Positions 3,471 to 32,000 of a DNA stretch of 32,000 bases are shown here, piece by piece (the stretch's first letter is position 1; every line of letters begins with the position of its first letter). Below the pieces are notes generated by a model that was not told where the DNA came from, did not search any database, and saw only the letters and a program-made list of their open reading frames with translations. The DNA is taken from assembly GCF_016127575.1 (NCBI RefSeq), contig NZ_CP066019.1, forward strand, positions 480,001 through 512,000, given 5' to 3'. The translations under genes and the position numbers were made by a program. The DNA comes from Cupriavidus necator (GTDB lineage Bacteria; Pseudomonadota; Gammaproteobacteria; Burkholderiales; Burkholderiaceae).

Positions 3471-4028
3471 GTGGACATACCGCCGATGGCAACGACTCCT
3501 GCAAATAAGAACCTGACCGTAACGCATCCGGCGTGCCTGGTCGACGGCTCGGACCGTGAATTCCGGCACCTGGTGAATGGCCTGCTGCCGTTTGCCGCGC
3601 GCCTGCTGTCCGTGCGCGACGGCTTTGGCAGCCTGATCGGCCTGACGGGGGTCCAGTACTCGCTGATCCGCTCGATCCTGCACCTGTCGCAGCAAGGCGA
3701 GGTGACGGTCAACCAGCTCGCCGACCATCTGCACCTGAGCGGCCCGTTCATCACCATCGAGACCGGCAAGCTCAAGAAGCTGGGGCTGATCGACAAGAAG
3801 GCCCATCCCGAAGACAAGCGCAAGATGCGTCTGACCATCACCGCCGCCGGGACGCGTCTGCTCAATGAACTGCTGCCGGTGCAGCAGCAGATCAACGACG
3901 TATTGTTCGACGGCGTTTCCCGCACCGAATTCAAGGTGCTGTGTTCGGTGGTCGACCGGCTGGTCGCCAACGGCGATCGCGCCGCGCTGGATCTCGAACA
4001 CCTGCAGGCGCGCCGGCAGAAAGGCTAG
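3471..4028 (+). CDS. MarR-family transcriptional regulator
   Basis: 185 aa. A winged-helix signature is present: [70 protein letters not shown]. The start is GTG at 3471, with an alternative ATG at 3486. No clear SD precedes either. Confidence 0.85.
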
Positions 4029-5257
4029 TGCGCGGCCCACTGCACCGTGCCGACATCGATGCCCTCCTGGTGCATCTCCCATAGCGGGCTCAGTTCACGC
4101 AGGCGGGTAACGGTCTCGCTGACCTGCCGGATGACCTCGTCCACCTCTGCCTCGGTGGTGTAGCGCCCAAGCGTAAAGCGGATCGAGCTATGTGCCAGCT
4201 CGTCGCTGCGGCCCAGCGCCCGCAGCACGAACGAGGGCTCCAGTGAAGCCGAGGTGCAGGCCGAGCCCGACGACACCGCCACGTCCTTGATGCCCATGAT
4301 CAGCGATTCGCCTTCGACATAGTTGAAGCTGATGTTCAGGTTGTGCGGGATACGGTGCGCCAGGCTGCCGTTGACGTAGACCTCGTCCAGCCGCGACAGC
4401 CCCGCCAGCAACCGGTCGCGCAACGCGCCCACGCGGCGCGCTTCCTCCGCAAGTTCCAGCTTTGCCAGCCTGAAGGCTTCGCCCATGCCCACGATCTGGT
4501 GCGTTGGCAGGGTGCCTGAGCGCATGCCGCGCTCATGCCCGCCGCCGTGGATCTGCGCCTCGATGCGGATGCGCGGCTTGCGCCGCACGTAGAGCGCGCC
4601 GATGCCTTTCGGGCCATAGACCTTGTGCGCCGTCACGGTGAGCAGGTCGATCTTCAGGGTATCCAGGTCGATGGCGATCTTGCCGGCGGCCTGCACCGCA
4701 TCGCAATGGAACACCACCCCCGTCGCGCGGCATAGCTCGCCGATCTGCGCAACTGGCTGGATCACGCCGATCTCATTGTTGACCATCATCACCGAAACCA
4801 GGATGGTGTCCGGCCGCATGGCCGCGCGCAGCGCGTCAAGGTCGACCAGGCCGTCGGTGCCGACGTCGAGATAGGTCACCTCAAAGCCCTGCCGCTCCAG
4901 TTCGCGGCAGGTATCGAGCACCGCCTTGTGCTCGGTCTTGACCGTGATGATGTGGTTGCCCTTGCCGCGATAGAAATGCGCCGCGCCCTTGATCGCCAGG
5001 TTGTTGCCCTCGGTCGCGCCGGAGGTCCAGATGATCTCGCGCGGGTCCGCATTCAGCAGCGCCGCCACATGCGCGCGTGCGGTCTCGACCGCCTCTTCCG
5101 CCTGCCAGCCGTAGTAGTGGCTGCGCGATGCGGGGTTGCCGAACTGCTGGTGCAGGTAGGGAACCATCTTCTCGACGACCCGGGTGTCGACCGGTGTCGT
5201 CGCGCTGTAGTCCATGTAGATCGGAAGGGTGTTCGGCTCGGATTGCATGGCGCTCAT
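4025..5257 (-). CDS. iscS: Cysteine desulfurase, IscS family (PLP-dependent), stand-alone paralog
   Basis: 410 aa, collinear with E. coli IscS as I recall it. It has the PLP-lysine region [43 protein letters not shown], the active-site loop [21 protein letters not shown] and the C-terminus LSPLWEM. No iscR, iscU, iscA, hscBA or fdx genes are adjacent. Confidence 0.93.
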
Positions 5258-6187: not shown

Positions 6188-7672
6188 ATGATCAAGACCG
6201 GTAACCAGCACATCGCCATGCTGCGCGATGGCCGCGAGGTGTACCTGGACGGCAAGCGGGTGACAGATGTCACCAGCCACCCGGCCTTCCGCAATTCGAT
6301 CCGCAGCTACGCCAACCTCTACGACTTCCAGGCGCAGCCGGGCAATATCGACAAGATGACCTTCCAGCCGGCGGGCACCGACCGGCGCGTCAGCCGGATC
6401 TGGGAGCTGCCGGCCAGCTACAACGAACTGGTCGAACGCCGCCAGATGCTGGAAGCCTGGACCGAACTGCACTACGGCTTCATGGGCCGCTCGCCCGACC
6501 ACGTGGCTTCCTGCATCTCGGGCATGTACATGGGCATCGATGTCTTCGAGCAGGCCGATCCGGCACGTGCCGGCGCGCTGCGCGACTACTACCGCTATGC
6601 CCGCGACAACGACCTGTTCCTCACCTATGTGATCGTCAACCCGCAGGCCAACCAGTCCAAGTCCGCGCACGAGCAGGAAGACAAGTACCTGGCGGTGGGC
6701 ATCGTCGACCAGGACGCGGAGGGCATCACCGTGCGCGGCGCCAAGATGCTGGCGACCAGCGGCATCATGGCCAACGAGGTCTTCTGCAGCTGCATCCAGC
6801 CGCTGCGCGAGGGCGACGAGATGTATGCGCTGTCCTTCGCGGTGCCGATGAACACCAAGGGCCTGAAGGTGATGTCGCGCAAGTCGTATGAAGCCAATGC
6901 CACCTCGGTGTTCGACAACCCGCTGGCCAGCCGCTTTGACGAGAACGACGCGGTGCTCTATTTCGACGACGTCAAGGTGCCGTGGGAGCGCATCTTCGTC
7001 GCGGGCGACGTGGGCTTGTGCGCCAGGCAATTCCACGCCACGCCGGCGCACGTCTACCAGAACTACCAGTGCCAGGTGCGGCTGATGGTGAAGCTGCGTT
7101 TCCTGGTGGGCCTGGCGCACCGCATCACCGAGATCAACGGCACCAACAGCTTCCCGCAGGTCAGGGAAATGCTGGGCCAGCTCGCCGCCGAAGCAGGCAT
7201 GGTCGAGGCCTGGGTCTACGGCATGGAGGCCAAGGGCCAGGTCGGCAAGCATGGCTACTTCGTGCCGGACCGCAGCATGCTGTACGGCTCGCAGGTGGTG
7301 ACCCAGCAGCTCTACGGCAAGGTGCTGGCCACGCTGCGCGAGCTGGCCGGCGGCGGCATGATCATGCTGCCGTCGAGCATCGAGGATTTCGCCAATCCGT
7401 CGCTCGCCGGGATCATCGCCAAGACGCAGAAGTCGCCGGTGTGCAGCCCGGAAGAGCGCGTCAAGTTCTTCAAGCTCGCCTGGGACGCGGTCGGCTCCGA
7501 GTTTGCGTCGCGCCACAACCAGTACGAGATGTTCTATGCCGGCGCCACCTTTGTCACCAAGGGGCATGCCTATCGCACCTACGACTGGCAGAACGCATCC
7601 GGCCTGGTCGACAACATGCTCGGCAGCTATTCCCTTGAAAGCGAACTGGCCAAGCTGCCGCAGGCCGCCTGA
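6188..7672 (+). CDS. HpaB-family two-component flavin-dependent monooxygenase, oxygenase component
   Basis: 494 aa. The N-terminus LRDGREVYLDGKRVTDVTSHPAFRNSIRSYANLYD parallels E. coli HpaB [35 protein letters not shown] (recalled from memory). An aggag RBS is present and the gene follows a flavin reductase. Confidence 0.92.
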   Translation: MIKTGNQHIAMLRDGREVYLDGKRVTDVTSHPAFRNSIRSYANLYDFQAQPGNIDKMTFQPAGTDRRVSRIWELPASYNELVERRQMLEAWTELHYGFMGRSPDHVASCISGMYMGIDVFEQADPARAGALRDYYRYARDNDLFLTYVIVNPQANQSKSAHEQEDKYLAVGIVDQDAEGITVRGAKMLATSGIMANEVFCSCIQPLREGDEMYALSFAVPMNTKGLKVMSRKSYEANATSVFDNPLASRFDENDAVLYFDDVKVPWERIFVAGDVGLCARQFHATPAHVYQNYQCQVRLMVKLRFLVGLAHRITEINGTNSFPQVREMLGQLAAEAGMVEAWVYGMEAKGQVGKHGYFVPDRSMLYGSQVVTQQLYGKVLATLRELAGGGMIMLPSSIEDFANPSLAGIIAKTQKSPVCSPEERVKFFKLAWDAVGSEFASRHNQYEMFYAGATFVTKGHAYRTYDWQNASGLVDNMLGSYSLESELAKLPQAA

Positions 7673-7717
7673 CTTTCCGCACCTTTCCCAATTCCCGCAT
7701 CGAACACGGAGATCGAC

Positions 7718-8098
7718 ATGGCAATCACCAAACTTCACGACGAGTTCCACACCCTGGACCTGGAGTCCGGCTGGGAGGTCCCCCACGGCTATCCGTCGGG
7801 TATCCAGCAGAAGATCCTGTCCGGCTCGCTGGACGAGAACGGCCGCAGCGGCAGCCGTACGCGCCTGCTGCGTTTCCAGCCCGGCGTGTTCACCACCTCG
7901 CCCTTCGTGCATGAGTACTGGGAAGAGGTCTACCTGCTCAGCGGCGACCTGACCGTCGGCAACGACGCCAATGGCAAGGGCGGCGAGGCCTTCGTCCCCA
8001 ACACCTACGCCTGCCGCCCGCCCGGCGCCTTCCATGGCCCGTTCAAGTCAGACGGCGGCTGCATGCTGCTGGAGATCCACTACTACGACCCGGCCTGA
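7718..8098 (+). CDS. Cupin-domain protein
   Basis: 126 aa with a ggaga RBS. The segment HEYWEEVYLLSGDL...PPGAFHGPF fits the two cupin motifs. Confidence 0.75.
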   Translation: MAITKLHDEFHTLDLESGWEVPHGYPSGIQQKILSGSLDENGRSGSRTRLLRFQPGVFTTSPFVHEYWEEVYLLSGDLTVGNDANGKGGEAFVPNTYACRPPGAFHGPFKSDGGCMLLEIHYYDPA

Positions 8099-8100
8099 TC

Positions 8101-9444
8101 ATGGAAGCGACTATCGCAACCGCGCAGCGCCAGCTTGCCGCGGGCAGCGCCAACGCGCTGTCCCTGCTGGCGTCATGCGTCGAACGTATCTGCAATCCAG
8201 GCGGCGAGGGCGCGCGCGTATTCCCGCATGGCGTGAGCATGGCGGCGCGCAAGCAGGCCCAGGCCAGCGACATGCTGCGCGAGCAGGGCGTGGCCGGCCC
8301 GCTGGCGGGCGTGCCGGTGTCCGTGAAGGACCTGTTCGACGTGCAGGGCGACGTGACTCGCGCCGGCGCACGTGTGCTGCCGGAGCGTGCGGCCAGTGCC
8401 GACGCGCCGGTCATTGCGCGCTTGCGTGCGGCGGGGGCGGTGTTTGTCGGGCGTACCAATATGACCGAGTTCGCCTACTCGGGCGTCGGCATCAATCCGC
8501 ACTACGGCACGCCACGCAATCCCTACGACCGGCAGGCGGGCCGCATTCCCGGTGGCTCGTCGTCGGGGGCTGCGGTGTCGGTGACCGACGGCATGGCCCT
8601 GGCCGCGATCGGCTCCGACACCGGCGGTTCGTGCCGGATCCCGGCCGCGTTGTGCGGCATCGCCGGCTTCAAGCCCACGGCGCGGCGCGTGCCGCTGCAG
8701 GGCACGGTGCCGTTGTCGCCCAGCTATGACTCGGTGGGCTGCCTGGCCAACACTGTGGCGTGCTGCGCCGCAGTTGATGCCGTGATGGCGGGCGAGGTGC
8801 CGCCCGCGGGGCCGGCGCCGCTGGCAGGGCTGCGCCTGGCGGTGCCCACCGGCCTGGTGCTGGAAGGCATGTCGGACGAGGTGGCCGAGGTCTTCAGCCG
8901 CACGCTGCGCCGGCTGTCCGCGGCGGGCGCGCTGCTGCAGGACGTGAGCTTCGACAGCTGGGACCAGCTGGCCGGCATCGGCGCGAACGGCGGCCTGGTC
9001 GCAGCGGAAGCCAGTGCCTGGCACGGCAGCCTGCTGGCTGAGCAGGCCGATCGATATGACCCGCGCGTGCTGTCGCGCATCCGGCTGGCTGACGGGCAGC
9101 GTGCCGCCGACTACCTGCGCATGCTGCAGCGCCGGGGCGAGCTGTGCCGGCAGGCCGATGCCGAGCTGGCGGGATTCGATGCCGTGGTCCTGCCCACCGT
9201 GCCGGTCGTGGCGCCGCGCATCGCGGACCTGGACGACGACGAAGCCTTCTTCAGCACCAACCGGCTGCTGCTGCGCAACCCGGCCATCGCCAACATGCTC
9301 GACCTGTGCGCGCTGTCGGTCCCGTGCCATCGCCCGGGCGACGCACCGGTGGGGCTGATGCTGTTCGGGCGCCACCTGTCCGACCGCAGGCTGCTGGCCA
9401 TCGGCATGGGCATCGAGGGGGCATTACGGCACGAGCGGGGTTGA
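8101..9444 (+). CDS. Amidase-signature (AS) family amidase
   Basis: 447 aa with GVPVSVKDLFDV (catalytic Lys region) and GGSSSGAAVSV...GSDTGGSCRIPA (AS motif). It starts 2 nt after the cupin stop. Confidence 0.92.
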   Translation: MEATIATAQRQLAAGSANALSLLASCVERICNPGGEGARVFPHGVSMAARKQAQASDMLREQGVAGPLAGVPVSVKDLFDVQGDVTRAGARVLPERAASADAPVIARLRAAGAVFVGRTNMTEFAYSGVGINPHYGTPRNPYDRQAGRIPGGSSSGAAVSVTDGMALAAIGSDTGGSCRIPAALCGIAGFKPTARRVPLQGTVPLSPSYDSVGCLANTVACCAAVDAVMAGEVPPAGPAPLAGLRLAVPTGLVLEGMSDEVAEVFSRTLRRLSAAGALLQDVSFDSWDQLAGIGANGGLVAAEASAWHGSLLAEQADRYDPRVLSRIRLADGQRAADYLRMLQRRGELCRQADAELAGFDAVVLPTVPVVAPRIADLDDDEAFFSTNRLLLRNPAIANMLDLCALSVPCHRPGDAPVGLMLFGRHLSDRRLLAIGMGIEGALRHERG

Positions 9445-9491
9445 GCCCCCGCAGCAGTACAGAAGTACCCATAACTACAGTGGAGACAACA

Positions 9492-10718
9492 ATGCCTGAT
9501 ATCCGTACCGGCGCCGCCGTACTGGCCTGCGCCACCCTGTTCGCGGCGACTGCTTCCGCAGCCGACCCGGCCCCCATCAGCGACGGCGTGGTCAAGATCG
9601 GTGTGCTGACCGACATGTCGTCGATCTTTTCCGATATCGGAGGCAAGGGCTCGGTGGTGGCCGCGCAGATGGCCGTGGACGATTTCGGCGGCAAGGTGCT
9701 GGGCGCCCCCATCCAGGTGGTCAGCGCCGACCACCAGAACAAGACCGACGTCGCCGCCACGCTGGCGCGCGGCTGGTTCGACAACCAGAAGGTCGACGTG
9801 ATCCAGGACGCCCTGCCGTCCTCGGTCGCGCTGGCGGTATCCAACCTGGGCAAGCTCAAGCACAAGATCGTCATCGCCAGCGGTGCCGGCACCACGCGCC
9901 TGAGCAATGAAGACTGCTCGCCCTACACCATCCAGTATTCGTACGACACCTACGCCTTTGCCGCCAACACGGTCAAGGCGCTGGCCCGGCGCGGCGACCA
10001 CAGCTGGTACTTCCTGACGGTCGACTACGCCCTGGGCGCGTCGCTGGAGAAGGACGGCACCGAGGCGCTGTCCAGTGTCGGCGGTACCCTGAAGGGCAAG
10101 GCCAGGCATCCGATCAACTCCGCCGACCTGTCGTCCTACCTGCTGCAGGGACAGTCCTCGGGTGCGAAGGTGATCGGCCTGGCCAACGCTGGCGCCGACA
10201 CGGTCAATGCGATCAAGACCGCCGCGGATTTCGGCATCAACACCGCGGGCAAGCAGAAGCTGGCCGGGCTTCACATGTTTATCAGCGATATCCACAGCCT
10301 GGGGCTGCAAGCCGCGCAGGGCATGACGCTGACCACATCGTTCTACTGGGATCGCGACGACGCCACGCGCGCCTGGTCGCAACGCTTCTTCGACAAGACC
10401 GGGCGCATGCCGACCCTGGTGCATGCCGGCGTGTATTCGTCGACCACGCATTACCTGAAGGCGATCCAGGCCGCGCGAACCGACGACAGCGATGCCGTGC
10501 TGGCCCGCATGCGCGAGACCCCGGTCAATGACTTCTTTGCGAAGAACGGCACGATCCGCGCCGACGGCCTGATGGTGCACGACATGTACCTGGTCGAAGT
10601 GAAGCGGCCGCAGGAGTCCAAGCGTCCTTGGGACTACTACAAGATCAAGAGCGTGATTCCCGCGAGCGAAGCGTTCCGCCCGCTCAGCGCAAGCACTTGC
10701 CCGCTGGTCAGGAAGTAA
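9492..10718 (+). CDS. ABC transporter substrate-binding protein, LivJ/branched-chain amino acid-amide type
   Basis: Internal ATG of the 9144 ORF, preceded by a ggaga RBS. It has the signal peptide MPDIRTGAAVLACATLFAATASAA and a type-I periplasmic binding protein pattern (VKIGVLTDMSSIFSDIGG). Confidence 0.9.
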   Translation: MPDIRTGAAVLACATLFAATASAADPAPISDGVVKIGVLTDMSSIFSDIGGKGSVVAAQMAVDDFGGKVLGAPIQVVSADHQNKTDVAATLARGWFDNQKVDVIQDALPSSVALAVSNLGKLKHKIVIASGAGTTRLSNEDCSPYTIQYSYDTYAFAANTVKALARRGDHSWYFLTVDYALGASLEKDGTEALSSVGGTLKGKARHPINSADLSSYLLQGQSSGAKVIGLANAGADTVNAIKTAADFGINTAGKQKLAGLHMFISDIHSLGLQAAQGMTLTTSFYWDRDDATRAWSQRFFDKTGRMPTLVHAGVYSSTTHYLKAIQAARTDDSDAVLARMRETPVNDFFAKNGTIRADGLMVHDMYLVEVKRPQESKRPWDYYKIKSVIPASEAFRPLSASTCPLVRK

Positions 10719-10785
10719 GCCCACATCCCTCATCGAGGCCGGCATTCCAGCCGGCACTCCACCCCGTTGCAGAGAGCAACCGATC

Positions 10786-11475
10786 ATGCAGACCCTTACC
10801 TTTGAACTCGACAGCTGCCAGGGCAAGTCGCAGCGCACCGTCACCATCCATCAGCTCATCGTGGCGGGATGGACCGGGCGCGACGTCGAAGCCATGGAAG
10901 CCCATATCCGCGAACTGGAGGAGTTGGGCGTGAAGCGCCCGCCCTATACGCCGGTGTTCTATCGCGTCGCTGCGCAACGCCTGGGGCCGGCCCCGGAGAT
11001 CCAGGTCAGTGGCGAGGCCAGCAGCGGGGAAGCCGAGTTCCTGCTGGTCCGGGACGGCGATGAAATCCTGGTGGGCATTGCCTCGGACCATACCGACCGC
11101 GAAGCCGAGACCTACGGCATCACCGTGTCCAAGCAGATGTGCGAGAAGCCCTGTGCGTCGGCCTTGTGGCGCCTTTCTGAGGTGGAAGGCCACTGGGACC
11201 AGCTGATGCTGCGCTCCTACGCCACCATCGACGGCGAGCGCGTGCTGTACCAGGAAGGTCCGGTGACCGCCATGCGCTCCCCGGCGGACCTGCTGCAGCA
11301 CTTCAGCGGCCATGGCGGCGACTTTGGCGAAGGCTCGGCGATGCTGTGCGGCACGCTGCCCGCGATCGGCGGCATCCGCCCGGCCGAGCGCTTCGAGATC
11401 GAGCTGGAAGACCCGGTGCTGGGGCGCACGCTGCGCCACGCCTACGCGGTCGCTGCGCTGCCCGTGGCGGGCTGA
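10786..11475 (+). CDS. DUF2848-like protein (unknown function, embedded in the transporter block)
   Basis: 229-aa ORF with normal amino-acid composition. The segment HQLIVAGWTGRD...HIRELEELGVKRP resembles DUF2848 as I recall it. The family name is unverified. Confidence 0.7.
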   Translation: MQTLTFELDSCQGKSQRTVTIHQLIVAGWTGRDVEAMEAHIRELEELGVKRPPYTPVFYRVAAQRLGPAPEIQVSGEASSGEAEFLLVRDGDEILVGIASDHTDREAETYGITVSKQMCEKPCASALWRLSEVEGHWDQLMLRSYATIDGERVLYQEGPVTAMRSPADLLQHFSGHGGDFGEGSAMLCGTLPAIGGIRPAERFEIELEDPVLGRTLRHAYAVAALPVAG

Positions 11476-11524
11476 GCATGCCGCGTCATCCCCACAGACA
11501 CGGCAGCGCCACGGAGTCACCGCC

Positions 11525-12298
11525 ATGCACCAAGACCTGATACTAGAGACCCGCAACCTCGGCAAGGCCTTCCGCGGCTTTACCGCGGTGAGCGACGTCA
11601 ACCTGCGGGTACGCCGCGGGTCGATCCATGCCTTGATCGGGCCCAACGGCGCCGGCAAGACGACCTGCTTCAACCTGCTCACCAAGTTCCTGGAGCCGAC
11701 CACCGGCACCATCCTTTTCAACGGCATCGACATCACCCGTGAAAAGCCCGCGCAGATCGCGCGGCGCGGCGTGATCCGTTCGTTCCAGATATCGGCGGTA
11801 TTCCCGCACCTGACGGTGATGGAGAACGTGCGCATCGGGCTGCAGCGCCAGCTCGGCACGGCGTACCAGTTCTGGCGCAGCGAGCGCTCGCTGGACGTGC
11901 TCAATGACCGCGCCATGGAGCTGCTAGAGCAGGTCGGCCTGACCGAGTTCGCGCAGACGCTGACGGTGAACCTGCCGTACGGCCGCAAGCGCGCGCTGGA
12001 GATCGCCACCACGCTGGCGATGGAGCCCGAGCTGATGCTGCTCGACGAGCCCACGCAGGGCATGGGCCACGAAGACGTGGACCGCGTCACGCAGCTGATC
12101 AGGAAGGTCTCGGCGGGCCGCACCATCCTGATGGTGGAACACAACATGAGCGTGGTCTCGTCGATCGCTGACAAGATCACCGTGCTGCAGCGTGGCGCGA
12201 TCCTGGCCGAAGGCCCGTATGCCGAAGTGTCCAGGGATCCGCGCGTGATGGAGGCCTACATGGGCACCGTCGACGCGGAACTGCAGGGCGCGCACTGA
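11525..12298 (+). CDS. ABC transporter ATP-binding protein (LivG-like)
   Basis: Internal ATG of the 11312 ORF with a ggag RBS. Walker A GPNGAGKTT, signature LPYGRKRALE and Walker B LMLLDEP are present. Confidence 0.92.
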   Translation: MHQDLILETRNLGKAFRGFTAVSDVNLRVRRGSIHALIGPNGAGKTTCFNLLTKFLEPTTGTILFNGIDITREKPAQIARRGVIRSFQISAVFPHLTVMENVRIGLQRQLGTAYQFWRSERSLDVLNDRAMELLEQVGLTEFAQTLTVNLPYGRKRALEIATTLAMEPELMLLDEPTQGMGHEDVDRVTQLIRKVSAGRTILMVEHNMSVVSSIADKITVLQRGAILAEGPYAEVSRDPRVMEAYMGTVDAELQGAH

Positions 12299-15682: not shown

Positions 15683-16249
15683 ATGCCGGATATTCGCTAC
15701 GCACTCCGGAACGGAGACAAGACAAGCTCGGGCGGCATACTCTTCGCCACGGGCCGCAGCATATTCCATCATGACCTGATAGTCGGTGTCGAAGGCGACC
15801 ATGCAACCTGCCCCGCCTGCAAGGTGGGCGGGCCGGTGATGAATGACTGTTATCCGGCCGTCGATGTAGATGGCAAACAGATGTTGGTGACTGGTGCGCG
15901 AGTCAATTGCAAGTGCCCGACTCACCCGGTTGTCATCCACTCGCGGATGGATTTCATTATTGAGGTGAACCGGGGAGGCCGCAATGCGCCGCCGCCGCCA
16001 TCGTCCGCGTCCTTGGCCTCTTCGAACCTGACTTCGCCCGCGACAGGTGACTACGACGAGCAAGTCCGAGTCCGAGCGGGTAATACACCCTTGGAAGGCT
16101 ACCCCTACTTCATCGCGACGCCCGACGGGCGGGCATTCTCCGGGTGTATAGACGAAAGCCGCAAGTTACCCCGCATATATACAAAGAACCTCAACGAGTA
16201 CGCAATTTATTGGGGCGATGACGCTCTAGCAAAACAGATAGAGGTATGA
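15683..16249 (+). CDS. PAAR-domain protein with Pro/Ser linker and ~85-aa C-terminal extension
   Basis: The sequence ALRNGDKTSSGGILFATGRS...VGVEGDHATCPACKVGGPVMN...VTGARVNCKCPTHPVVIHS is a PAAR fold with Cys/His Zn-site residues. It is followed by GGRNAPPPPSSASLASSNLTSP and a distinct C-terminal module. Confidence 0.82.
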   Translation: MPDIRYALRNGDKTSSGGILFATGRSIFHHDLIVGVEGDHATCPACKVGGPVMNDCYPAVDVDGKQMLVTGARVNCKCPTHPVVIHSRMDFIIEVNRGGRNAPPPPSSASLASSNLTSPATGDYDEQVRVRAGNTPLEGYPYFIATPDGRAFSGCIDESRKLPRIYTKNLNEYAIYWGDDALAKQIEV

Positions 16250-16252
16250 GGT

Positions 16253-16846
16253 ATGCCCAATAAGAAAACGATCGTGACAACAAACGCGACACCGAACTCC
16301 ATTAAGGAAGTGCAGCTTAAGGTGGTAACGTTTCAGGAACTCTGGGAAAATTATCCGTCGGGTAATCCATACGACAATCCGGCCTATTCCGATCAGTGCG
16401 CGATCCGTATGAGTGTTACTCTTCATCGAGTCGGCATCGAGATGAAGTCCTTTTCATCGAAGCTTGTGAAGCCGCTGTCGGGGCAGCCGAGTATCGGGCG
16501 TATTATTCTTCCCGCAGACGGGAAGGTCACTGCCACGCGAGCAAACGAACTCGGGGAATGGTTGAAGTTGCAACCTTTTGCCGGCCTAGGGAAGGCGGAG
16601 AATATTACAGGGCGGGACTGGGTGGGCAAGGTAAAGGGGCGAACCGGAATAATAATGTTCGATGGCTATTGGACGCGTGACGGAGAGGTGGCAGGGAATG
16701 CTAGCGGAGGCCATATCGATTTATGGAATGGAGAAAAGCTCACAGGCTTTGGTACTGGTCTAAGAGTAAGTTTGAATATTGTGGTTCCGGGTATTTGGTC
16801 AGATTTTCGCAACTCGAAAACAATTCTTTTCTTCCCCGTAAAATGA
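16253..16846 (+). CDS. tae4: Tae4-family type VI secretion amidase effector (peptidoglycan gamma-D-glutamyl-mDAP endopeptidase family)
   Basis: Contains FQELWENYP...NPAYSDQCAIRMSVTLHRVG (catalytic Cys motif) and GGHIDLWNG (catalytic His motif). Salmonella Tae4, as recalled from memory, has NACPIRMSYVLN and GHVTLWNG. The gene starts 3 nt after the PAAR gene stop. GC is about 43% (26/60 at 16261-16320). Confidence 0.85.
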   Translation: MPNKKTIVTTNATPNSIKEVQLKVVTFQELWENYPSGNPYDNPAYSDQCAIRMSVTLHRVGIEMKSFSSKLVKPLSGQPSIGRIILPADGKVTATRANELGEWLKLQPFAGLGKAENITGRDWVGKVKGRTGIIMFDGYWTRDGEVAGNASGGHIDLWNGEKLTGFGTGLRVSLNIVVPGIWSDFRNSKTILFFPVK

Positions 16847-17070
16847 AGATACTGAGAGCAGTCATCGGCGCTATGACTGGTGCTGTCCTGGCTACGCTTG
16901 CTGCTTGGGGCGGGTTATATCTCTTCGGCGTTGTAGTTTTGCGCGGGACAGGAAGTTTGTTCGACACGAATCAGCATGCAGCGAATCTGTTCTTTGTTGG
17001 CTGGTTCGTGTCTATGGTCGCAGCCTCATTAATTGGTGGATGGCTTGGGTATTCATCCGGGCGAAAATAG
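16843..17070 (+). CDS. 75-aa two-TM membrane protein, candidate (non-canonical) cognate immunity protein
   Basis: Its ATG overlaps the tae4 stop (aATGa). It reads MKILRAVIGAMTGAVLATLAAWGGLYLFGVVVL, then a 16-aa loop, then FFVGWFVSMVAASLIGGWLGY. I recognise no similarity to Tai4. Confidence 0.55.
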   Translation: MKILRAVIGAMTGAVLATLAAWGGLYLFGVVVLRGTGSLFDTNQHAANLFFVGWFVSMVAASLIGGWLGYSSGRK

Positions 17071-21246: not shown

Positions 21247-22470
21247 ATGCAAGGCGTTCGCCCCGGTTTCCGCTTGATCGTTGCCGGGCTGATGATGGCC
21301 GGTGCCGCGCTGGCCGCGACCGCGCAAACGCACGGCGATCACAGCGGCCACGGCGCGCAGGCCAAGGCCGCGAAGATGAGCGAGCTGGGCACCGGCGCCG
21401 CGTTCGATCGAAACGGCAAGCTATGGGTCGCCTACAAGGACGGCCCTTACGTCGCGGTACGTGCATCGACCGATTACGGCCGCAGCTTCGGGCCGGCGCA
21501 GCATGTCAACAGCGTGCCGGAGCAGGCCGCCGCCGATCACGAAAGCCGGCCCAAGGTCGCCACCGGGCGCGACGGCGAGATCTTCGTCACCTGGACCCAG
21601 CCGCTGCCCAAGCCGTGGACCGGCTTTATCCGCTTTGCGCGTTCCACCGATGGCGGCAAGTCCTTCGCCGAACCGCTGACGGTGCATGCCAACCGCGACC
21701 AGATCGCCCACCGCTTCGACGCCATCGCGGTGGACAATGCCGGGCGCGTCTTCGTCAGCTGGATCGACAAGCGCGACGTGGTTGCCGCCGAGGCGCGCAA
21801 GCAGCCGTACGCCGGCGCCGCGGTCTACTACGCGGTCTCGGCCGATCACGGCAAGACCTTCCAGGGCGACTACAAGGTCGCCGACCAGTCGTGCGAATGC
21901 TGCCGCATCGCGCTGTCGCCCACGCCCGACGGCAAGATGCTGGCGCTGTGGCGCCATGTATTCCCGCCCAACGCGCGCGACCACGCGCTGGCGCTGCTGG
22001 GCACCGACGGCAAGGCCACGCCGGTGCAGCGCGCCACCTTCGACGACTGGCGCATCGATGCCTGTCCGCACCACGGCCCCGGCGCTTCGGTGGCGCCCGA
22101 TGGCACGGTGCACATGATCTGGTTCAACGTGCGCGAAGGCAAGCCCACGGTCTCGGTGGGGCGCTGGAAGGACGGCAAGCTGCAGGCACAGCGCCCGCTG
22201 GATGATCCGCGTGCGCAGCATGCCGACATCGTCGCGCTGAACGACAACGAGATCGCGGTGGCCTGGAAATCGTTCGACGGCCGGCAGACACGGCTGTCCG
22301 CCATGCTGTCGCACGATGGCGGCAAGACCTGGCAGACGCGCAAGCTGGCCGGCACGGAGCGCGACTCGGACCAGCCGCACCTGCTGCAGCACGCCGGCCG
22401 CGCCTACGTGCTGTGGCGTACCGATGCCGAGGGCTTCCAGGTGTTCCCGCTGGGCAAGGAGGGCGCATGA
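21247..22470 (+). CDS. Periplasmic BNR/Asp-box beta-propeller protein (sialidase-like fold) with Cys/His motifs
   Basis: Internal ATG with a signal peptide (MQGVRPGFRLIVAGLMMAGAALAATA). Four Asp-boxes are present: STDYGRSF, STDGGKSF, SADHGKTF and SHDGGKTW. There is an N-terminal HGDHSGHG, a CECC at 21892-21903 and a CPHH at 22063-22074. Confidence 0.85.
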   Translation: MQGVRPGFRLIVAGLMMAGAALAATAQTHGDHSGHGAQAKAAKMSELGTGAAFDRNGKLWVAYKDGPYVAVRASTDYGRSFGPAQHVNSVPEQAAADHESRPKVATGRDGEIFVTWTQPLPKPWTGFIRFARSTDGGKSFAEPLTVHANRDQIAHRFDAIAVDNAGRVFVSWIDKRDVVAAEARKQPYAGAAVYYAVSADHGKTFQGDYKVADQSCECCRIALSPTPDGKMLALWRHVFPPNARDHALALLGTDGKATPVQRATFDDWRIDACPHHGPGASVAPDGTVHMIWFNVREGKPTVSVGRWKDGKLQAQRPLDDPRAQHADIVALNDNEIAVAWKSFDGRQTRLSAMLSHDGGKTWQTRKLAGTERDSDQPHLLQHAGRAYVLWRTDAEGFQVFPLGKEGA

Positions 22471-26799: not shown

Positions 26800-27720
26800 T
26801 CAATCCAGCGCCAGCACCCCGGGAATCGCCTCCACCAGCAAATCGATCGTCACCCTCAGCTTGTGCGGCAGGAAACGGGTGCGCGGCCACACCAGGTGCA
26901 GCGGGGTCCGGATCACCGAGGCTTGCGGCAGCACGCGCACCAGCGTGCCCCGGTCCAGCGGCTCCCGCACCAGCCACAAGGGGACATTGACCAGGCCCGC
27001 GCCTCGTATGGCTGCCGCAGCGATGGTGTCGATATCGTCAAAGCCGAGACGGTGAGCCAGCTCAGGCCGCGCGATATTGCCGTCGGGCCCGGCCAGTGAC
27101 CAGGGCACGGACTGGCCGCCATGCATGTAGACGAGGCAGCGGTGCGAGGCCAGGTCGGCAATGCTGGCCGGCGTGCCATGCTTGCGCAGGTAGCCGGGCG
27201 CGGCACAGAGCACCATAGCCTGCATGCCCAGCGGACGTGCCACCAGCATGTCGCTGTCCGGCAGGCGCCCGCTGCGGATGGCCAGGTCGATGCCGTCGTC
27301 GGCGAAGTCGGCCAGCCGGTCGGTGAAATTCCCTTCCAGCCGCAATTGCGGATGACGGTCTGCCAGCTCCAGCAGCAGCGGCGCCACATGGTGGCGGCCG
27401 AACACTACCGGGGCACTCACGCGGACGCGGCCGGCCACTTCCCTGCGCCCGGCTTCCAGCATGTGCTGGGCGGCATCCAGGTCTTCCAGCGCCTGGGCAC
27501 AGCGTTCGTAGAAGGCCTGACCATCGTCGGTCAGCGCCAGGCTGCGCGTGGTGCGCACGAACAGGCGCGTGCCGACGCGAGCCTCAAGCCGGGCGATGGC
27601 CTTGCCGATGGCCGAGCGCGTCAGCCCAAGGCGCGCCGCGGCCTGGGCAAAGCTGCCGGCCTCCGCGGCGGCAACGAAGGCGGAGATCCCGGCCAGCCGG
27701 TCATGGGTAATTGGTTCCAT
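26800..27720 (-). CDS. LysR-family transcriptional regulator
   Basis: The start is the internal ATG at 27720. The HTH segment is ISAFVAAAEAGSFAQAAARLGLTRSAIGKAIARLEARVGTRLFVRTTRSLALTDDG. It is divergent from the oxidoreductase gene. Confidence 0.9.
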   Translation of the reverse strand: MEPITHDRLAGISAFVAAAEAGSFAQAAARLGLTRSAIGKAIARLEARVGTRLFVRTTRSLALTDDGQAFYERCAQALEDLDAAQHMLEAGRREVAGRVRVSAPVVFGRHHVAPLLLELADRHPQLRLEGNFTDRLADFADDGIDLAIRSGRLPDSDMLVARPLGMQAMVLCAAPGYLRKHGTPASIADLASHRCLVYMHGGQSVPWSLAGPDGNIARPELAHRLGFDDIDTIAAAAIRGAGLVNVPLWLVREPLDRGTLVRVLPQASVIRTPLHLVWPRTRFLPHKLRVTIDLLVEAIPGVLALD

Positions 27721-27812
27721 AAGATCTACATGAGAAGGACATCGATTGCCCAATGGCGCTGGCAGGGAATCAGTATAGTGGGTTCACCGTTTTCAACAGA
27801 CCGGAGTACCCC

Positions 27813-28826
27813 ATGACTTCCTCCATGCAGCGCTGGCAACTGTCCGCTTTCGGCCGCAACAACCTGCGTCGCGTCGACGCGCCCATTCCCGTGCCCGGTC
27901 CCGGCGAGGTGCTGGTGCGGGTCCATGCCGTGGCCTTGAACTACCGCGACCTGCTGATCATCCAGGACGGCATGGGCATGCCCGTGCAGCCGCCGCTGGT
28001 TCTCGGGTCGGACATGCGCGGCGAGGTGGTGGCGAGTGGCGATGGTGTAGCCGACTTTGCCCCTGGCGACGCCGTGATCAGCACCTTCTTCACCGGCTGG
28101 CTCGATGGCGTGCAGCCGCACCGCAGCATGCCGCTGGGCGTGCCGGGTCCCGGCATGCTGTCGGAGTACGTGGTATTGGCAGAGGACTCGCTGGTGTCGG
28201 CCCCGCGCACGCTGGACGCCGCGCAGGCCAGCACGCTGACCTGCGCCGGCCTGACGGCCTGGCAAGCCCTGGCTGAAGCGACGGTGACGCGGCCCGGCGA
28301 CACCGTCGTGGTGATCGGCACCGGCGGAGTGGCCCTGTTTGCGGTGCAGATCGCCCGCGCACAGGGGGCGCGCGTGATCGTGGTGTCAGGCAGCGACGAC
28401 AAGCTGGCGCGCGTGCAGGAGCTGGGCGCGGCGCATGGCGTCCATCGCGGCCGCACCGCTGACTGGCCGGCTGCCGTGCGCGAGCTGACCGGAGGCCGCG
28501 GTGCCGACCATGTGCTGGAACTGGCTGGCGGAGACAACTTCGGCCGGTCGCTTGCCGCGCTGGCGCAGGGCGGCCGGATCTCGGTGATCGGCAACCTTCA
28601 GGGGGATGAGCTGCGCGCCAGCGTCTATCCGGTGCTGCATGGCCGCGTGACCGTGCAGGGGATCGGCGTGTCGCACCGGCGCGCGCTGCAGGACCTGGTG
28701 CGTGCCGTGGACTGGTTGGGGCTGCGCCCGGTGATCGAGAGCGAGTACGGGTTCGGGGACTTGCCCGCGGCGCTCGACCACCTGGAACGCGGGGCCTTCG
28801 GCAAGGTGGTGGTGCGGCTGCGCTGA
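27813..28826 (+). CDS. Medium-chain dehydrogenase/reductase (NADPH:quinone oxidoreductase / Zn-ADH-like)
   Basis: Internal ATG after a ggag RBS. It contains PGPGEVLVRVHAVALNYRD and the Rossmann motif VVIGTGGVALFAVQIARAQGARVIV. Confidence 0.9.
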   Translation: MTSSMQRWQLSAFGRNNLRRVDAPIPVPGPGEVLVRVHAVALNYRDLLIIQDGMGMPVQPPLVLGSDMRGEVVASGDGVADFAPGDAVISTFFTGWLDGVQPHRSMPLGVPGPGMLSEYVVLAEDSLVSAPRTLDAAQASTLTCAGLTAWQALAEATVTRPGDTVVVIGTGGVALFAVQIARAQGARVIVVSGSDDKLARVQELGAAHGVHRGRTADWPAAVRELTGGRGADHVLELAGGDNFGRSLAALAQGGRISVIGNLQGDELRASVYPVLHGRVTVQGIGVSHRRALQDLVRAVDWLGLRPVIESEYGFGDLPAALDHLERGAFGKVVVRLR

Positions 28827-28842: not shown

Positions 28843-29538
28843 CTATTTGCGAGCCTTGCCGCGCACGCTCTTCTTGGCCGCGGCGGCGCGCGCCGCTTCT
28901 TTTTCGGCCGCTGCCGCCGCGCCCAACTGCTCCAGCCAGGACATGCCCTCGACATAGGACAGGAAATGCCGCAGGTATTCCGGCGACGTCTCGCGCATCA
29001 GGGACAGCGAACGATGCACGAGATGGTCGGTATTGAGCGGCCCGGCATTCTCCGGCACGCGTTCCAGCGACAGGCGGAAGTGCTGCTCGACGCTGACCCT
29101 GGCCCAGGTCTCGCGGAAGTAGTCGGCCAGGGCGTCGACCAGCGGCGCGTCGGACTGGGGTGCGGTTGCCGGCACCGGCGTGGGCGATCGTGCATCGTTC
29201 GAGGCGATCGCGATGGCGGGCCTGGCGCGTGCGGTGATGTCGTGCACGAGTGCGCCAAGCGCGCTGGCTGTCGGGCCGGCTGTTGGCGCGGACGGCGCGG
29301 CACCATCGGCACCATCGCTATCCTGGCCTGTGTGCCGCTGCACGATGGCTGCATACGCGGCGGCCAGGCCACGCAGGCGCTCATCCAGCAAGCCCCGCAC
29401 CGCGCCACTGTGTGCGGCGGCGCGGCGGGCCAGTGCTTCCATCAGGCGGAAGCGCACGGGATCGGCCTGATCGGCGCCGCTGGCCTGCCAGGCGTCCAGT
29501 TGCGCGCGGATATCGGTTGCCACGTCGAGGCTAGCCAT
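28843..29538 (-). CDS. DUF2894-like protein (unknown function; third gene of the repeat-protein/MotB-like operon)
   Basis: 231 aa. Its start overlaps the upstream stop by 8 nt. It has an N-terminal helical region, an Ala/Pro/Ser-rich linker, a conserved-looking C-terminal region (FRLSLERVPENAGPLNTDHLVHRSL) and a basic tail. The family name comes from recalled gene context and is unverified. Confidence 0.7.
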   Translation of the reverse strand: MASLDVATDIRAQLDAWQASGADQADPVRFRLMEALARRAAAHSGAVRGLLDERLRGLAAAYAAIVQRHTGQDSDGADGAAPSAPTAGPTASALGALVHDITARARPAIAIASNDARSPTPVPATAPQSDAPLVDALADYFRETWARVSVEQHFRLSLERVPENAGPLNTDHLVHRSLSLMRETSPEYLRHFLSYVEGMSWLEQLGAAAAAEKEAARAAAAKKSVRGKARK

Positions 29539-30178
29539 GCGGCTTCACGGTGCCCGCGGTCACACGCGGCACCGGCGAGATCTCGACGCGCCGGTTCTTC
29601 GCGCGGCCCTCGGCATCGGCATTCGGTGTCACCGGCTGCTGCGAACCGAAGGCGGCCGAGAACACCGAGGTGGGCGGGATGCCGGCATCGATCAGGGTGC
29701 GGGTCACGGTCAGCGCGCGCTGCGCCGACAGCTCCCAGTTGTCGGCAAAGCGGCGGTTGCCTTCGCGCACCTGCTGGTCGTCGGTAAAGCCGCTCACCAT
29801 CAGGATCTCGTCGCGGCTGCGCAGGTAGGCCGACAACGGCTGCGCCAGGCTCTTCAGCAGATCGCGGCCTTCAGGTTGCAGCTGGTCTGAGTTGAGCGCA
29901 AACAGCACGTTGCCGCTGATGCCGATGCGGCCGTTCACCAGCGTCACGCGGCCGGCCGCCAGCGGCGCCGCCAGCGCCTTTTCCAGCGTCTCGCGGCGCT
30001 GTGCTTCCTCCTGCCGCTGCTTCACCTCGGCTTCCAGCCTGGCCGACAGTTCCATCTGCACGCCGATGACCCCCAGCAGGACGAGCACGAACGCGCCCAG
30101 CAGCACCGACATCAGGTCGCCGAAGACGGCCCAGGCCGGTACGGTCGGCTCGACGCCGGCGTCAAGGTCCTCTCTCAT
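29531..30178 (-). CDS. MotB-like OmpA-family protein (single TM with conserved Asp plus peptidoglycan-binding domain)
   Basis: The TM region AVFGDLMSVLLGAFVLVLLGV has the F-x-D-x-M-[ST] pattern of MotB. A coiled segment follows, then the OmpA-like domain (FALNSDQL...NWELSAQRALTVTRTLIDAGI...NRRVEI). Its ATG overlaps the upstream stop (ATGA). Confidence 0.9.
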   Translation of the reverse strand: MREDLDAGVEPTVPAWAVFGDLMSVLLGAFVLVLLGVIGVQMELSARLEAEVKQRQEEAQRRETLEKALAAPLAAGRVTLVNGRIGISGNVLFALNSDQLQPEGRDLLKSLAQPLSAYLRSRDEILMVSGFTDDQQVREGNRRFADNWELSAQRALTVTRTLIDAGIPPTSVFSAAFGSQQPVTPNADAEGRAKNRRVEISPVPRVTAGTVKPHG

Positions 30179-32000
30179 GCCGCCTCTGCGCTGGGCGCTT
30201 GCTGGCCGGCGCGCTGCTGCAGGTCCTCAAGGATCTGCTTTTGCGACAGCATGCTCAGGTCGACGACTTCGCGCGCCTGCGCCACGTAGTAGGCCAGTTG
30301 CTCGTCGCTGCGCGTCATCGACTTGTCCAGCGCGGCCTCGATGCGCTGCAGGTGGTCGATCAGCTTGCCGTTGGATTCGCTGAACAGCTGCACCGCCACG
30401 CCGAAGGCCTCGCCCAGGCTCGCGACTTCCACCGCACTGCCGGTGACCTGCGCGGCGATGTCGGTGAGCTTGCCGGTTTCGGCTTCGACCTTGTCGGTAA
30501 AGCGCGTGCCGACGCGGTCCAGCAGGTCCGCCGTGGTGGCGACCAGGGTGTCGACCGCGCTGCGCTGCTCAGTGGAGGCGCGGCTCACGGCATCGAGCAG
30601 CGTGCCCAGCGTTTCCAGCATGCGGCTGCGCTCTTCCAGCATGGCGTTGTCGCGCGCCATGCCGTCGGTGAGCTTCTCGCGCAGTTCTGCGATGACCTCC
30701 GCGGCGGCCTTGGGCGCTTCGGATGCGGCCTGCATCAGGTGGGCGACTTCGGCGATGGTGCCGGTGGCCTGGGCCTGCGCCTGGGCTGCCATGTCGCGCG
30801 CGGTGACGGCCAGCGTCTCGCAGATTTCCTGCTGGCGGCTGACGGTGTGCGCGCTGGCCTGTTCCCATTCCTGGCGCAGCGATGCGGCCATGGTGCCAAG
30901 CGTGTCAGTCCAGGCGGCCATGCGTTGCGCGTCCTGCGATGCCAGTTCCGCCTGCAATGTGGTGGCGGCCTTGGGTGCCTCGGCCGCGGCTTGCACCAGG
31001 CGGTCGATTTCGGCGAGTGTGGTGCTGGCATGCGCCTGCGTCTCGGTCGAGATCGCGCGCGCGGTCTGCGCCAGCGCCTCGCAGATCTCCTGCTGGCGCG
31101 TGGCGGCGTGCGTGCTGGCCTGTTCCCACTGCTGGCGCAGCGTGGCGGCGATGGTGCCGAGCGTATCGGTCCAGCCGGCAAAGCGCTGCTCATCGCGCGC
31201 AGCCAGCTCGGCCTGCAGCGCAACGGCCGCCTTTGGGGCATCCGTTGCGGCCTGCACCAGACGGTCGATCTCAGCGAGGGTGCGGCTGGCATGCGCCTGG
31301 GTCTGGGCCGAGATGTCGCGCACGCTCTGCGCCAGCGTCGTGCTGATCTCGTCCTGGCGGCTTACCGTGTGCGCGTTCAGCTGTTCCCATTCCTGGCGCA
31401 ACGCGGCTGTCATGGTGCCGAGCGTATCGGTCCAGGCGGCGAAGCGCTGTGCATCGCGCGCAGCCAGTTCCGCCTGCAGCGCGACGGCCGCCTTCGGCGC
31501 GTCCGACGCGGCTTGCACCAGGCGGTCGATTTCCGCGAGGGTCTGGCTGGCATGCGCCTGGGTCTGGGCCGAGATGTCGCGCACGCTCTGCGCCAGCGTT
31601 GTACTGATCTCGTCCTGGCGGCTTACCGTGTGGGTGTTCAGTTGCTCCCACTCCTGGCGCAGCGCTGCGGTCATGCTGTCGAGCGTATCGGCCCAGGTGG
31701 CAAAGCGCTGTTCGTCGCGCGAGGCCAGTTCCGCCTGCAGCGCAACGGCCGCCTTCGGGGCGTCCGAAGCGGCTTGCACAAGGCGGTCGATTTCCGCGAG
31801 GGTCTGGCTGGCATGCGCCTGGGTCTGGGCCGAGATGTCGCGCACGCTTTGCGCCAGCGTCGTGCTGATCTCGTCCTGGCGGCTTACCGTATGCGCGTTC
31901 AGCTGTTCCCACTCCTGGCGCAGGGCAGTCGTCATGGTGCCGAGCGTATCGGTCCAGGCCGACAGGCGCTGCGCGTCGTGCGCGGCCAGCTGCGTCTGCA
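30175..32000 (-). CDS. Large alpha-helical repeat protein (DUF802-type repeats), 5'-partial; N-terminus lies beyond the right edge
   Basis: The frame stays open to position 32000. The stretch before the tracked Met reads ...QTQLAAHDAQRLSAWTDTLGT, which is another repeat unit. At least 5 consecutive 87-aa units are present (consensus ALRQEWEQLNAHTVSRQDEISTTLAQSVRDISAQTQAHASQTLAEIDRLVQAASDAPKAAVALQAELAARDxQRFAxWTDTLGTM), plus a ~150-aa non-repeat C-terminus. Confidence 0.85.
   Translation of the reverse strand, partial: QTQLAAHDAQRLSAWTDTLGTMTTALRQEWEQLNAHTVSRQDEISTTLAQSVRDISAQTQAHASQTLAEIDRLVQAASDAPKAAVALQAELASRDEQRFATWADTLDSMTAALRQEWEQLNTHTVSRQDEISTTLAQSVRDISAQTQAHASQTLAEIDRLVQAASDAPKAAVALQAELAARDAQRFAAWTDTLGTMTAALRQEWEQLNAHTVSRQDEISTTLAQSVRDISAQTQAHASRTLAEIDRLVQAATDAPKAAVALQAELAARDEQRFAGWTDTLGTIAATLRQQWEQASTHAATRQQEICEALAQTARAISTETQAHASTTLAEIDRLVQAAAEAPKAATTLQAELASQDAQRMAAWTDTLGTMAASLRQEWEQASAHTVSRQQEICETLAVTARDMAAQAQAQATGTIAEVAHLMQAASEAPKAAAEVIAELREKLTDGMARDNAMLEERSRMLETLGTLLDAVSRASTEQRSAVDTLVATTADLLDRVGTRFTDKVEAETGKLTDIAAQVTGSAVEVASLGEAFGVAVQLFSESNGKLIDHLQRIEAALDKSMTRSDEQLAYYVAQAREVVDLSMLSQKQILEDLQQRAGQQAPSAEAA
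30631..32000 (-). repeat. In-frame tandem repeat, period exactly 261 bp (87 codons), at least 5.25 copies, continuing off the window
   Basis: The unit boundary motif (c/g)atggtgcc / catgctgtc recurs at 30889, 31150, 31411, 31672 and 31933, each exactly 261 bp apart. The three rightmost full units are near-identical at DNA level by eye. The units become more diverged toward 30631. Confidence 0.9.

Follow-up and report, generated by a model that had tools for sequence, protein, structure and literature searches.

A probable Zorya type III anti-phage operon with a repeat-built ZorA tail on chromosome 2 of Cupriavidus necator H16

The final part of a 32,000-nucleotide stretch of Cupriavidus necator DNA (NZ_CP066019.1, positions 480,001 to 512,000 of the forward strand; hereafter the window) carries three overlapping genes on the minus strand, which very probably constitute zorA (tail), zorB and zorF of a Zorya type III anti-phage operon that is complete, in the order zorG-zorA-zorB-zorF, on chromosome 2 of strain H16. 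When this DNA was previously read from its letters alone (the sequence-only reading), a ZorA/ZorB-like pair was correctly recognised, and the genes were presented as a possible uncharacterised machine with no assigned function. The comparison with ZorA and ZorB was structurally right and can be put more strongly. The description as uncharacterised is superseded by Payne et al. 2021 (PMC8565338), who named this gene set Zorya type III and reported phage protection. The locus belongs to an already named, functionally tested defence family and is not an uncharacterised machine. As a textbook match for existing defence-finder models (E = 0) it offers no new system to claim, and its recognition is a rediscovery; the interest that remains lies in the effector mechanism of type III and in a ZorA tail that is quantised in repeats.

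Identity and layout of the operon

For each of the four proteins of the operon, PADLOC-DB type III models give a full-length match (ZorG3, E = 1.1e-95; ZorA3, E = 0; ZorB3, E = 1.2e-116; ZorF3, E = 7.2e-74), and Pfam analysis matched DUF3348, DUF802, OmpA and DUF2894 across the operon. By every sequence criterion tested, the locus is a full member of Zorya type III. Payne et al. identified 6,401 ZorAB pairs with flanking DUF3348 and DUF2894 genes, and when the type III operon of Stenotrophomonas nitritireducens DSM 12575 was cloned in Escherichia coli, plaquing was reduced and cultures did not collapse at a multiplicity of infection (MOI) below 0.1 (PMC8565338). The H16 locus has the same four families as the Stenotrophomonas system, in the same order and on one strand, and differs from it in its genus and in a ZorA tail that is among the longer ones (five units in a protein of 1045 aa). 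Type III systems are reportedly frequent in Burkholderia, Ralstonia and Paraburkholderia (PMC11890865).

The minus-strand reading frames of this part of the window span 28843-29538 (231 aa), 29531-30178 (215 aa) and 30175 to the window end, the last being free of stops for 607 codons. The 215-aa protein, looked up by exact sequence, led to chromosome 2 of C. necator H16 (AM260480.1), with which the final 12 kb of the window show 100% identity, and the complete four-gene operon was recovered from the identical H16 contig (L001 coordinates below), on which the genes beyond window position 32000 were analysed. There, zorG (DUF3348; L001 6116-6856, 246 aa) lies outside the window directly before zorA (DUF802; 6867-10004, 1045 aa), followed by zorB (OmpA; 10001-10648, 215 aa) and directly after it by zorF (DUF2894; 10641-11336, 231 aa). 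The window boundary falls inside zorA, which places the first 438 codons of this gene, encoding the membrane motor domain, beyond position 32000 together with zorG. The gene set named in the sequence-only reading, DUF3348, DUF802, OmpA and DUF2894, is in the correct order for the full locus as judged by Pfam on the H16 contig, and a DUF3348-like gene does precede the repeat protein (PF11828, 334 bits). The three window reading frames, both of their overlaps, the FGDLMS transmembrane Asp and the OmpA domain are likewise located where that reading had placed them. Of the Pfam families it had named for checking, DUF802, OmpA and DUF2894 were matched and MotA_ExbB (PF01618) was not, at E<=1.

Gene naming here follows PADLOC-DB, in which ZorF is the DUF2894 protein and ZorG the DUF3348 protein. 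The names are used in the opposite sense in the text of the papers, where DUF3348 is ZorF (PMC8565338, PMC11890865, PMC11946911); the 2021 text assigns DUF2894 to ZorG (PMC8565338), and one paper writes both zorFABG and zorGABF.

Both junctions within the window were inspected one nucleotide at a time. The zorA stop and the zorB start share the ATGA at 30175-30178 (minus strand; ATG at 30178-30176, TGA at 30177-30175), a 4-nt overlap, and the zorB stop and the zorF start share ATGGCTAG at 29531-29538 (minus strand; ATG at 29538-29536, TAG at 29533-29531), an 8-nt overlap. The former is kept in 78 of 82 related loci and the latter, at the same length, in 72 of 85, and both overlaps were judged not to be due to chance on this account. 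A species scan, using one genome per species and two strict DUF2894 peptide patterns, identified a ZorF relative in 409 species, and 80 loci were fetched. The order and strand of zorG-zorA-zorB-zorF are kept in all 78 loci with enough upstream DNA, and the co-occurrence of the genes across genomes, which the sequence-only reading had put forward as a check, is borne out.

The motor subunits and the ZorA tail

The window holds the C-terminal 607 of the 1045 zorA codons (30175-32000, minus strand), which encode cytoplasmic tail only; this portion by itself matches PADLOC ZorA3 with E = 1.3e-256, while the full protein aligns with profile positions 1-461 in a model that also covers the tail. The transmembrane region expected of the repeat protein was found on the extended contig, beyond the window end, as four hydrophobic segments in the head (residues 8-26, 30-48, 109-127 and 162-180, from hydropathy). 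Residues 108-195 match the PADLOC ZorA1 (2e-10) and ZorA2 (4e-9) models, and an N-terminal profile of 43 ZorA3 orthologues matches chain C of PDB 8VVN, the Shewanella type I ZorA (E = 9.9e-6), in an alignment that pairs the LGxxGTxxGM and TSxxGVAxS helices. At this profile level, the four-segment membrane domain of ZorA3 is shown to be homologous to the MotA/ExbB-like head of solved ZorA. The earlier statement that no motA, tolQ or exbB gene is adjacent was accurate by name only, since the MotA/ExbB-type subunit is none other than the repeat protein encoded upstream.

The zorB gene (29531-30178, minus strand) encodes the MotB-like subunit of the ZorAB motor, which is translationally coupled to the long-tailed A subunit as in other ZorA/ZorB pairs. 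Besides its full-length match to ZorB3, the 215-aa protein is matched by type I ZorB1 models (E = 5e-18, residues 14/19-200, transmembrane helix included) and by the ZorB2 model (6e-5), and it scores 392 bits against NCBIfam PRK09040 (cutoff 194). Residues 19-40 (30059-30124, minus strand) comprise the FGD21LMS motif and the single transmembrane helix; residues 19-35 read FGDLMSVLLGAFVLVLL, the Asp21 codon lies at 30116-30118, and hydropathy gives one hydrophobic segment (22-40). W16, F19, D21-L-M and G28-A-F30 are invariant in 85 of 85 orthologues, so that the MotB-like Asp pointed out in the sequence-only reading is indeed conserved. Asp21 is presumed to be the proton-carrying residue; its E. 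coli equivalent, ZorB Asp26, is required for defence (PMC11946911). An OmpA-like peptidoglycan-binding domain follows at residues 92-196 (29591-29905, minus strand; PF00691, E = 3.3e-18, 66.3 bits against a cutoff of 27.2), with NWELSAQRA at residue 147 and NRRVEI at residue 195, and its PDB sequence matches are MotB/PomB periplasmic domains (3khn, 4e-19; 6ysl, 1e-12). Together with the transmembrane segment and Asp21, this domain bears out the view of the middle protein as a genuine MotB-type subunit.

The 215-aa protein could be a flagellar stator MotB or the peptidoglycan anchor of a type VI secretion system (T6SS), as is implied by several of its database names ('Flagellar motor protein MotB'; 'type VI secretion system peptidoglycan-associated domain protein'), and a PAAR-Tae4 effector pair is encoded about 13 kb away in the window. 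The probability of this is negligible: the MotB, MotS and MotD equivalog models of NCBIfam score far below their cutoffs (at best 64.3 against 301 for MotB and 90.8 against 283 for MotD), TIGR03350 (type_VI_ompA) reaches 82.5 bits against a cutoff of 139.8, and the MotB-type and TIGR03350 matches span the OmpA domain only. Moreover, the partner of ZorB is a 1045-aa tailed protein and not MotA, and the operon contains zero flagellar or T6SS core genes.

The ZorA3 and ZorB3 proteins share several features with the MotAB/PomAB and ExbBD/TolQR 5:2 motors: a B subunit with a single transmembrane helix and an essential Asp in F/Y-x-D-[LF]-M-[ST], an A subunit with LGxxGTxxGM and TSxxG helices and, as in MotB and PomB, an OmpA-like cell-wall anchor on the B subunit. 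They differ from these motors in having no rotor, TonB or TolA partner, in the cytoplasmic tail of ~845 residues on the A subunit, in falling below the thresholds of Pfam MotA_ExbB and all MotB equivalog models, and in an output that would be phage defence rather than flagellar torque or outer-membrane energy transfer.

The ZorA tail extends for ~845 residues past the last membrane segment. It is rich in Ala, Gln, Leu and Glu (21% Ala, with only 9 Pro), a composition from which it is predicted to be helical, and it is acidic, with a net charge of about -40. Matches of the tail to Apolipoprotein (3e-7) and Phasin_2 (22.3 bits against a cutoff of 24.9) were rejected as sub-threshold, generic amphipathic-helix similarity with no link to PHB granules. 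The tail contains five tandem repeats of 87 residues (261 bp), at ZorA residues 437-871 (30700-32000, minus strand; TRF period 261, 5.0 copies, 83% matches), of which units 2-5 are complete in the window and unit 1 extends 4 nt past its end. Each unit has one Pro, always at the same position, and a weak hydrophobic periodicity of ~11 residues. Units 1-3 of H16 are 84-90% identical among themselves at the protein level and 63-71% identical to units 4 and 5, and by this measure the three upstream units are recent duplicates.

Across 80 loci (L007-L086), ZorA3 proteins fall into length classes one 87-residue step apart. Counted from the aligned first residue, one repeat unit corresponds to about 698 aa, two to about 785, three to about 872, four to about 959, five to about 1045, as in H16, and six to 1132 aa; an HMM of the repeat unit counts 1, 2, 3, 4, 5 or 6 copies, in agreement with these classes. 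Copy number varies among close relatives, such that Cupriavidus proteins with at least 92% identical heads have 3, 4 or 5 units, and for 42 of 181 units the nearest relative lies within the same protein. Repeat number shows no correlation with the length of the ZorF linker (rho = 0.05). In GCA_000389805.1 (L004 6428-10004), zorA is split into ORFs of 598 and 557 aa with the break inside the 261-bp repeat array; the split is probably an artefact of assembling the repeats rather than a genuine interruption of the gene. Long ZorA tails occur in all Zorya types, and their truncation abolishes type I defence according to published analyses (PMC11946911); no description of tail variation in 87-residue quanta was found in the searchable literature. 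The natural series of one to six repeats among close relatives provides a ready-made test of the importance of tail length.

Beyond the repeats, the tail ends in a non-repeat tip (residues 872-1045; 30175-30699, minus strand) that is acidic (net charge -12) and highly conserved. The median identity to orthologues is 79% for the tip and 80% for the motor domain, compared with 63% for the proximal tail; ZorG, ZorF and the proximal tail are all much less conserved than tip and motor (58-63%).

Soluble partners and a proposed mechanism

The zorF gene (28843-29538, minus strand) encodes a 231-aa DUF2894 protein (PF11445, E = 2.5e-70, 237 bits; ZorF3, E = 7.2e-74). An alignment of 75 homologues delineates an N-terminal three-helix domain, a variable Pro/Ala-rich linker, a helical domain towards the C-terminus that is conserved, and a tail rich in Lys and Arg. 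In the AlphaFold2 model (pTM 0.35), residues 1-73 have a pLDDT of about 90 and the remainder is of low confidence. ZorG, matched by PF11828 (DUF3348) and by PADLOC ZorG3, is modelled as a helical bundle (pLDDT 78.8, pTM 0.71). Hydropathy detects no hydrophobic segment in either protein, and their sequences point to two small, soluble, all-helical proteins. Foldseek comparison with solved structures returned PspA/Vipp1 as the best match for ZorF (E = 2) and long-helix pore-forming toxins for ZorG (E = 0.2, TM<=0.28), neither of which is significant or can be used as evidence, while profile searches of both proteins against PDB sequences gave no matches. No extra Pfam domain was found as a fusion partner in the longer DUF2894 members checked among 2,166 representatives. 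A 29-bp tandem repeat of 2.3 copies at window positions 28858-28923 (minus strand; L001 11256-11321) encodes the Ala/Lys/Arg-rich C-terminal tail of ZorF. The charges of the partners are opposite to that of the ZorA tail: ZorG has a basic pI of 9.3 and the Lys/Arg tail at the end of ZorF carries a charge of +6, which would suit binding of the partners to the acidic tail, although this is only a suggestion.

A framework for considering these proteins is provided by the other Zorya types. For type I, Hu et al. 2024 (PMC11946911) showed ZorA5B2 to be a 5:2 motor driven by protons and bearing a pentameric tail of ~70 nm, in which defence requires ZorB Asp26, the ZorA tail and the tail tip, and in which ZorC and ZorD are brought in to degrade phage DNA, the tip being needed for effector recruitment. 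Type I and II ZorAB structures were solved by Mariano et al. 2025 (PMC11890865). For type III, the searchable literature yielded neither a structure nor an effector mechanism, and type III stands alone among the Zorya types in this respect.

The H16 system resembles type I (E. coli NCTC9026 ZorABCD; Shewanella ANA-3 ZorAB, PDB 8VVN) in its homologous ZorA head, adjacent zorA and zorB genes, ZorB transmembrane Asp, peptidoglycan-binding domain and long cytoplasmic ZorA tail. In contrast to type I, where the effectors are a DNA-binding protein (ZorC) and a nuclease (ZorD), type III has two small, enzyme-less helical proteins, one of which is encoded by an extra gene, zorG, before zorA. The ZorA3 tail is also longer (about 845 versus about 500 residues) and made of 87-residue repeats, and ZorB3 contains zero cysteines and cannot form the two disulfides of the E. 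coli ZorB domain (PMC11946911). Similarity to type II (ZorABE; Sulfuricurvum kujiense ZorAB, PDB 8VVI) is seen in the matches of the ZorA head to ZorA2 (4e-9) and of ZorB to ZorB2 (6e-5), whereas type II uses the HNH nickase ZorE as its effector and has a much shorter tail (PMC11890865).

By analogy with the type I and II structures (PMC11946911, PMC11890865), five ZorA subunits around two ZorB subunits would form a proton-driven rotary unit. If type III works as its homologues do, this unit would be activated by disturbance of the envelope and would signal through its rotating tail, which would pass the signal to the soluble partners, probably via the conserved tip. ZorG and ZorF would then replace ZorC and ZorD, or ZorE, and might act as adaptors or regulators or as triggers of a membrane-level or abortive outcome; this assignment and the replacement itself are the least certain parts of the model. 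Since nuclease and other enzyme domains are absent from both partners, we infer that direct DNA cutting by ZorF or ZorG is unlikely; the output would more probably be that of an adaptor or a regulator, or lie at the level of the membrane. A further suggestion, which we regard as possible but doubtful, is that type III differs in mechanism from the DNA-degrading types I and II, with the tail serving as an adjustable ruler or scaffold and with a non-nucleolytic output that could be membrane-directed or abortive. It is prompted by the all-helical, enzyme-less partners, by the published protection at low MOI only and by the 87-residue quanta of the tail with their recent duplications within the gene.

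Conservation, alternatives and genomic setting

Several points weigh against identification of the H16 locus as a working anti-phage system. The one functional test in the searchable literature is that of a heterologous Stenotrophomonas system. The ZorA3 head gave no match to Pfam MotA_ExbB at E<=1, and a phmmer search of the single ZorA3 sequence against PDB found no relative, only a chance apolipoprotein match, so that the link of ZorA3 to the motor family is indirect, through profile-level matches to Zorya. Pfam, fold and profile searches identified no nuclease or enzyme domain or recognisable activity in ZorF or ZorG, and the effector half of the mechanism is conjecture. Within the window, the operon lies outside any defence island, among metabolic genes and regulators. 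Finally, the identity of about 80% that ZorB and the ZorA head show between genera is unusually high for a defence gene.

This conservation, which for ZorB, the ZorA head and the tail tip amounts to 76-81% identity between Cupriavidus and Paraburkholderia, would also be expected of a housekeeping envelope machine of the Burkholderiaceae, Tol-Pal-like or stator-like, whose natural role would lie outside phage defence, with the published protection arising as a by-product of overexpression in E. coli. The metabolic neighbourhood without a defence island, the breadth of ZorF relatives (409 species genomes under strict patterns) and their location on chromids and megaplasmids, and not on small mobile plasmids or phages, would fit such a role. 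We nevertheless consider it unlikely, given the significant homology to ZorA1/2 and ZorB1, the protection against phages by a representative (PMC8565338), phage-responsive transcripts in Stenotrophomonas and Burkholderia, and a genomic context that differs among species in the manner of a mobile cassette. Flanking genes vary widely between species, with 317 clusters among 479 flank ORFs and a few contexts that recur in groups of related species, which fits a self-contained mobile cassette rather than a core syntenic locus. In PLSDB, every ZorF relative is carried by a megaplasmid or chromid, in most cases of Ralstonia, and no ZorF homologue was found in the phage genome collection. Divergent alleles at other loci in genomes named C. 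necator also speak against a housekeeping role. In such genomes (loci L016 and L018), the type III ZorF is only 54-57% identical to that of H16 and its operon lies in other contexts, a pattern suggestive of separate acquisition events or of species names loosely applied.

A Zorya type III operon could also be intact and yet silent or ineffective in H16, giving no protection against the phages that this strain meets. A simple promoter and terminator scan found no sigma-70-like promoter upstream of zorG, and the protection published for the homologue is limited to low MOI (PMC8565338). The scan is, however, unsuited to an organism of 66% GC, the four ORFs are unbroken and show complete or almost complete identity across several C. 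necator genomes, and conservation extends to the catalytic Asp, the overlaps between the genes and the tip of the tail, all of which make a silent locus very improbable. As an intact type III system, the H16 operon is situated in a genetically tractable industrial organism.

The neighbours of the operon in the window include a quinone-oxidoreductase-type dehydrogenase, a LysR regulator, an amidohydrolase, transporters and aromatic-catabolism genes. The defence-island association raised by the sequence-only reading did not materialise, as the only nearby PADLOC match is an IscS. This cysteine desulfurase (4025-5257, minus strand) matches DndA/SspA at 1e-181, and a Dnd/Ssp defence system was rejected for it: NCBIfam scores it at 733 bits as IscS (cutoff 548) and at 441 as DndA (cutoff 480), and its neighbours are MarR, flavin reductase and HpaB-like genes. 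Scans for defence genes are likely to pick it up as a false positive.

Some close C. necator relatives (L002, L003 and L005) carry a deletion of ~1.3 kb directly downstream of zorF, around 11353-12090 (window about 26800-28826), which truncates the zinc-dehydrogenase and LysR regulator genes. Elsewhere in the window, a PAAR-domain protein (PF05488, 8.5e-8) is directly followed by a Tae4 type VI amidase effector (PF14113, 1e-28) at 15683-16846 (plus strand). The window has a single low-GC stretch (GC 0.516 at 16001-17000, compared with about 0.66 elsewhere), and the pair, which lies there, looks like an orphan T6SS effector islet. A 407-aa BNR-repeat protein, encoded beside a TonB-dependent receptor at about 21247-22470 (plus strand; L001 17709-18932), has a faint precomputed match to Tli3, a T6SS lipase immunity family.

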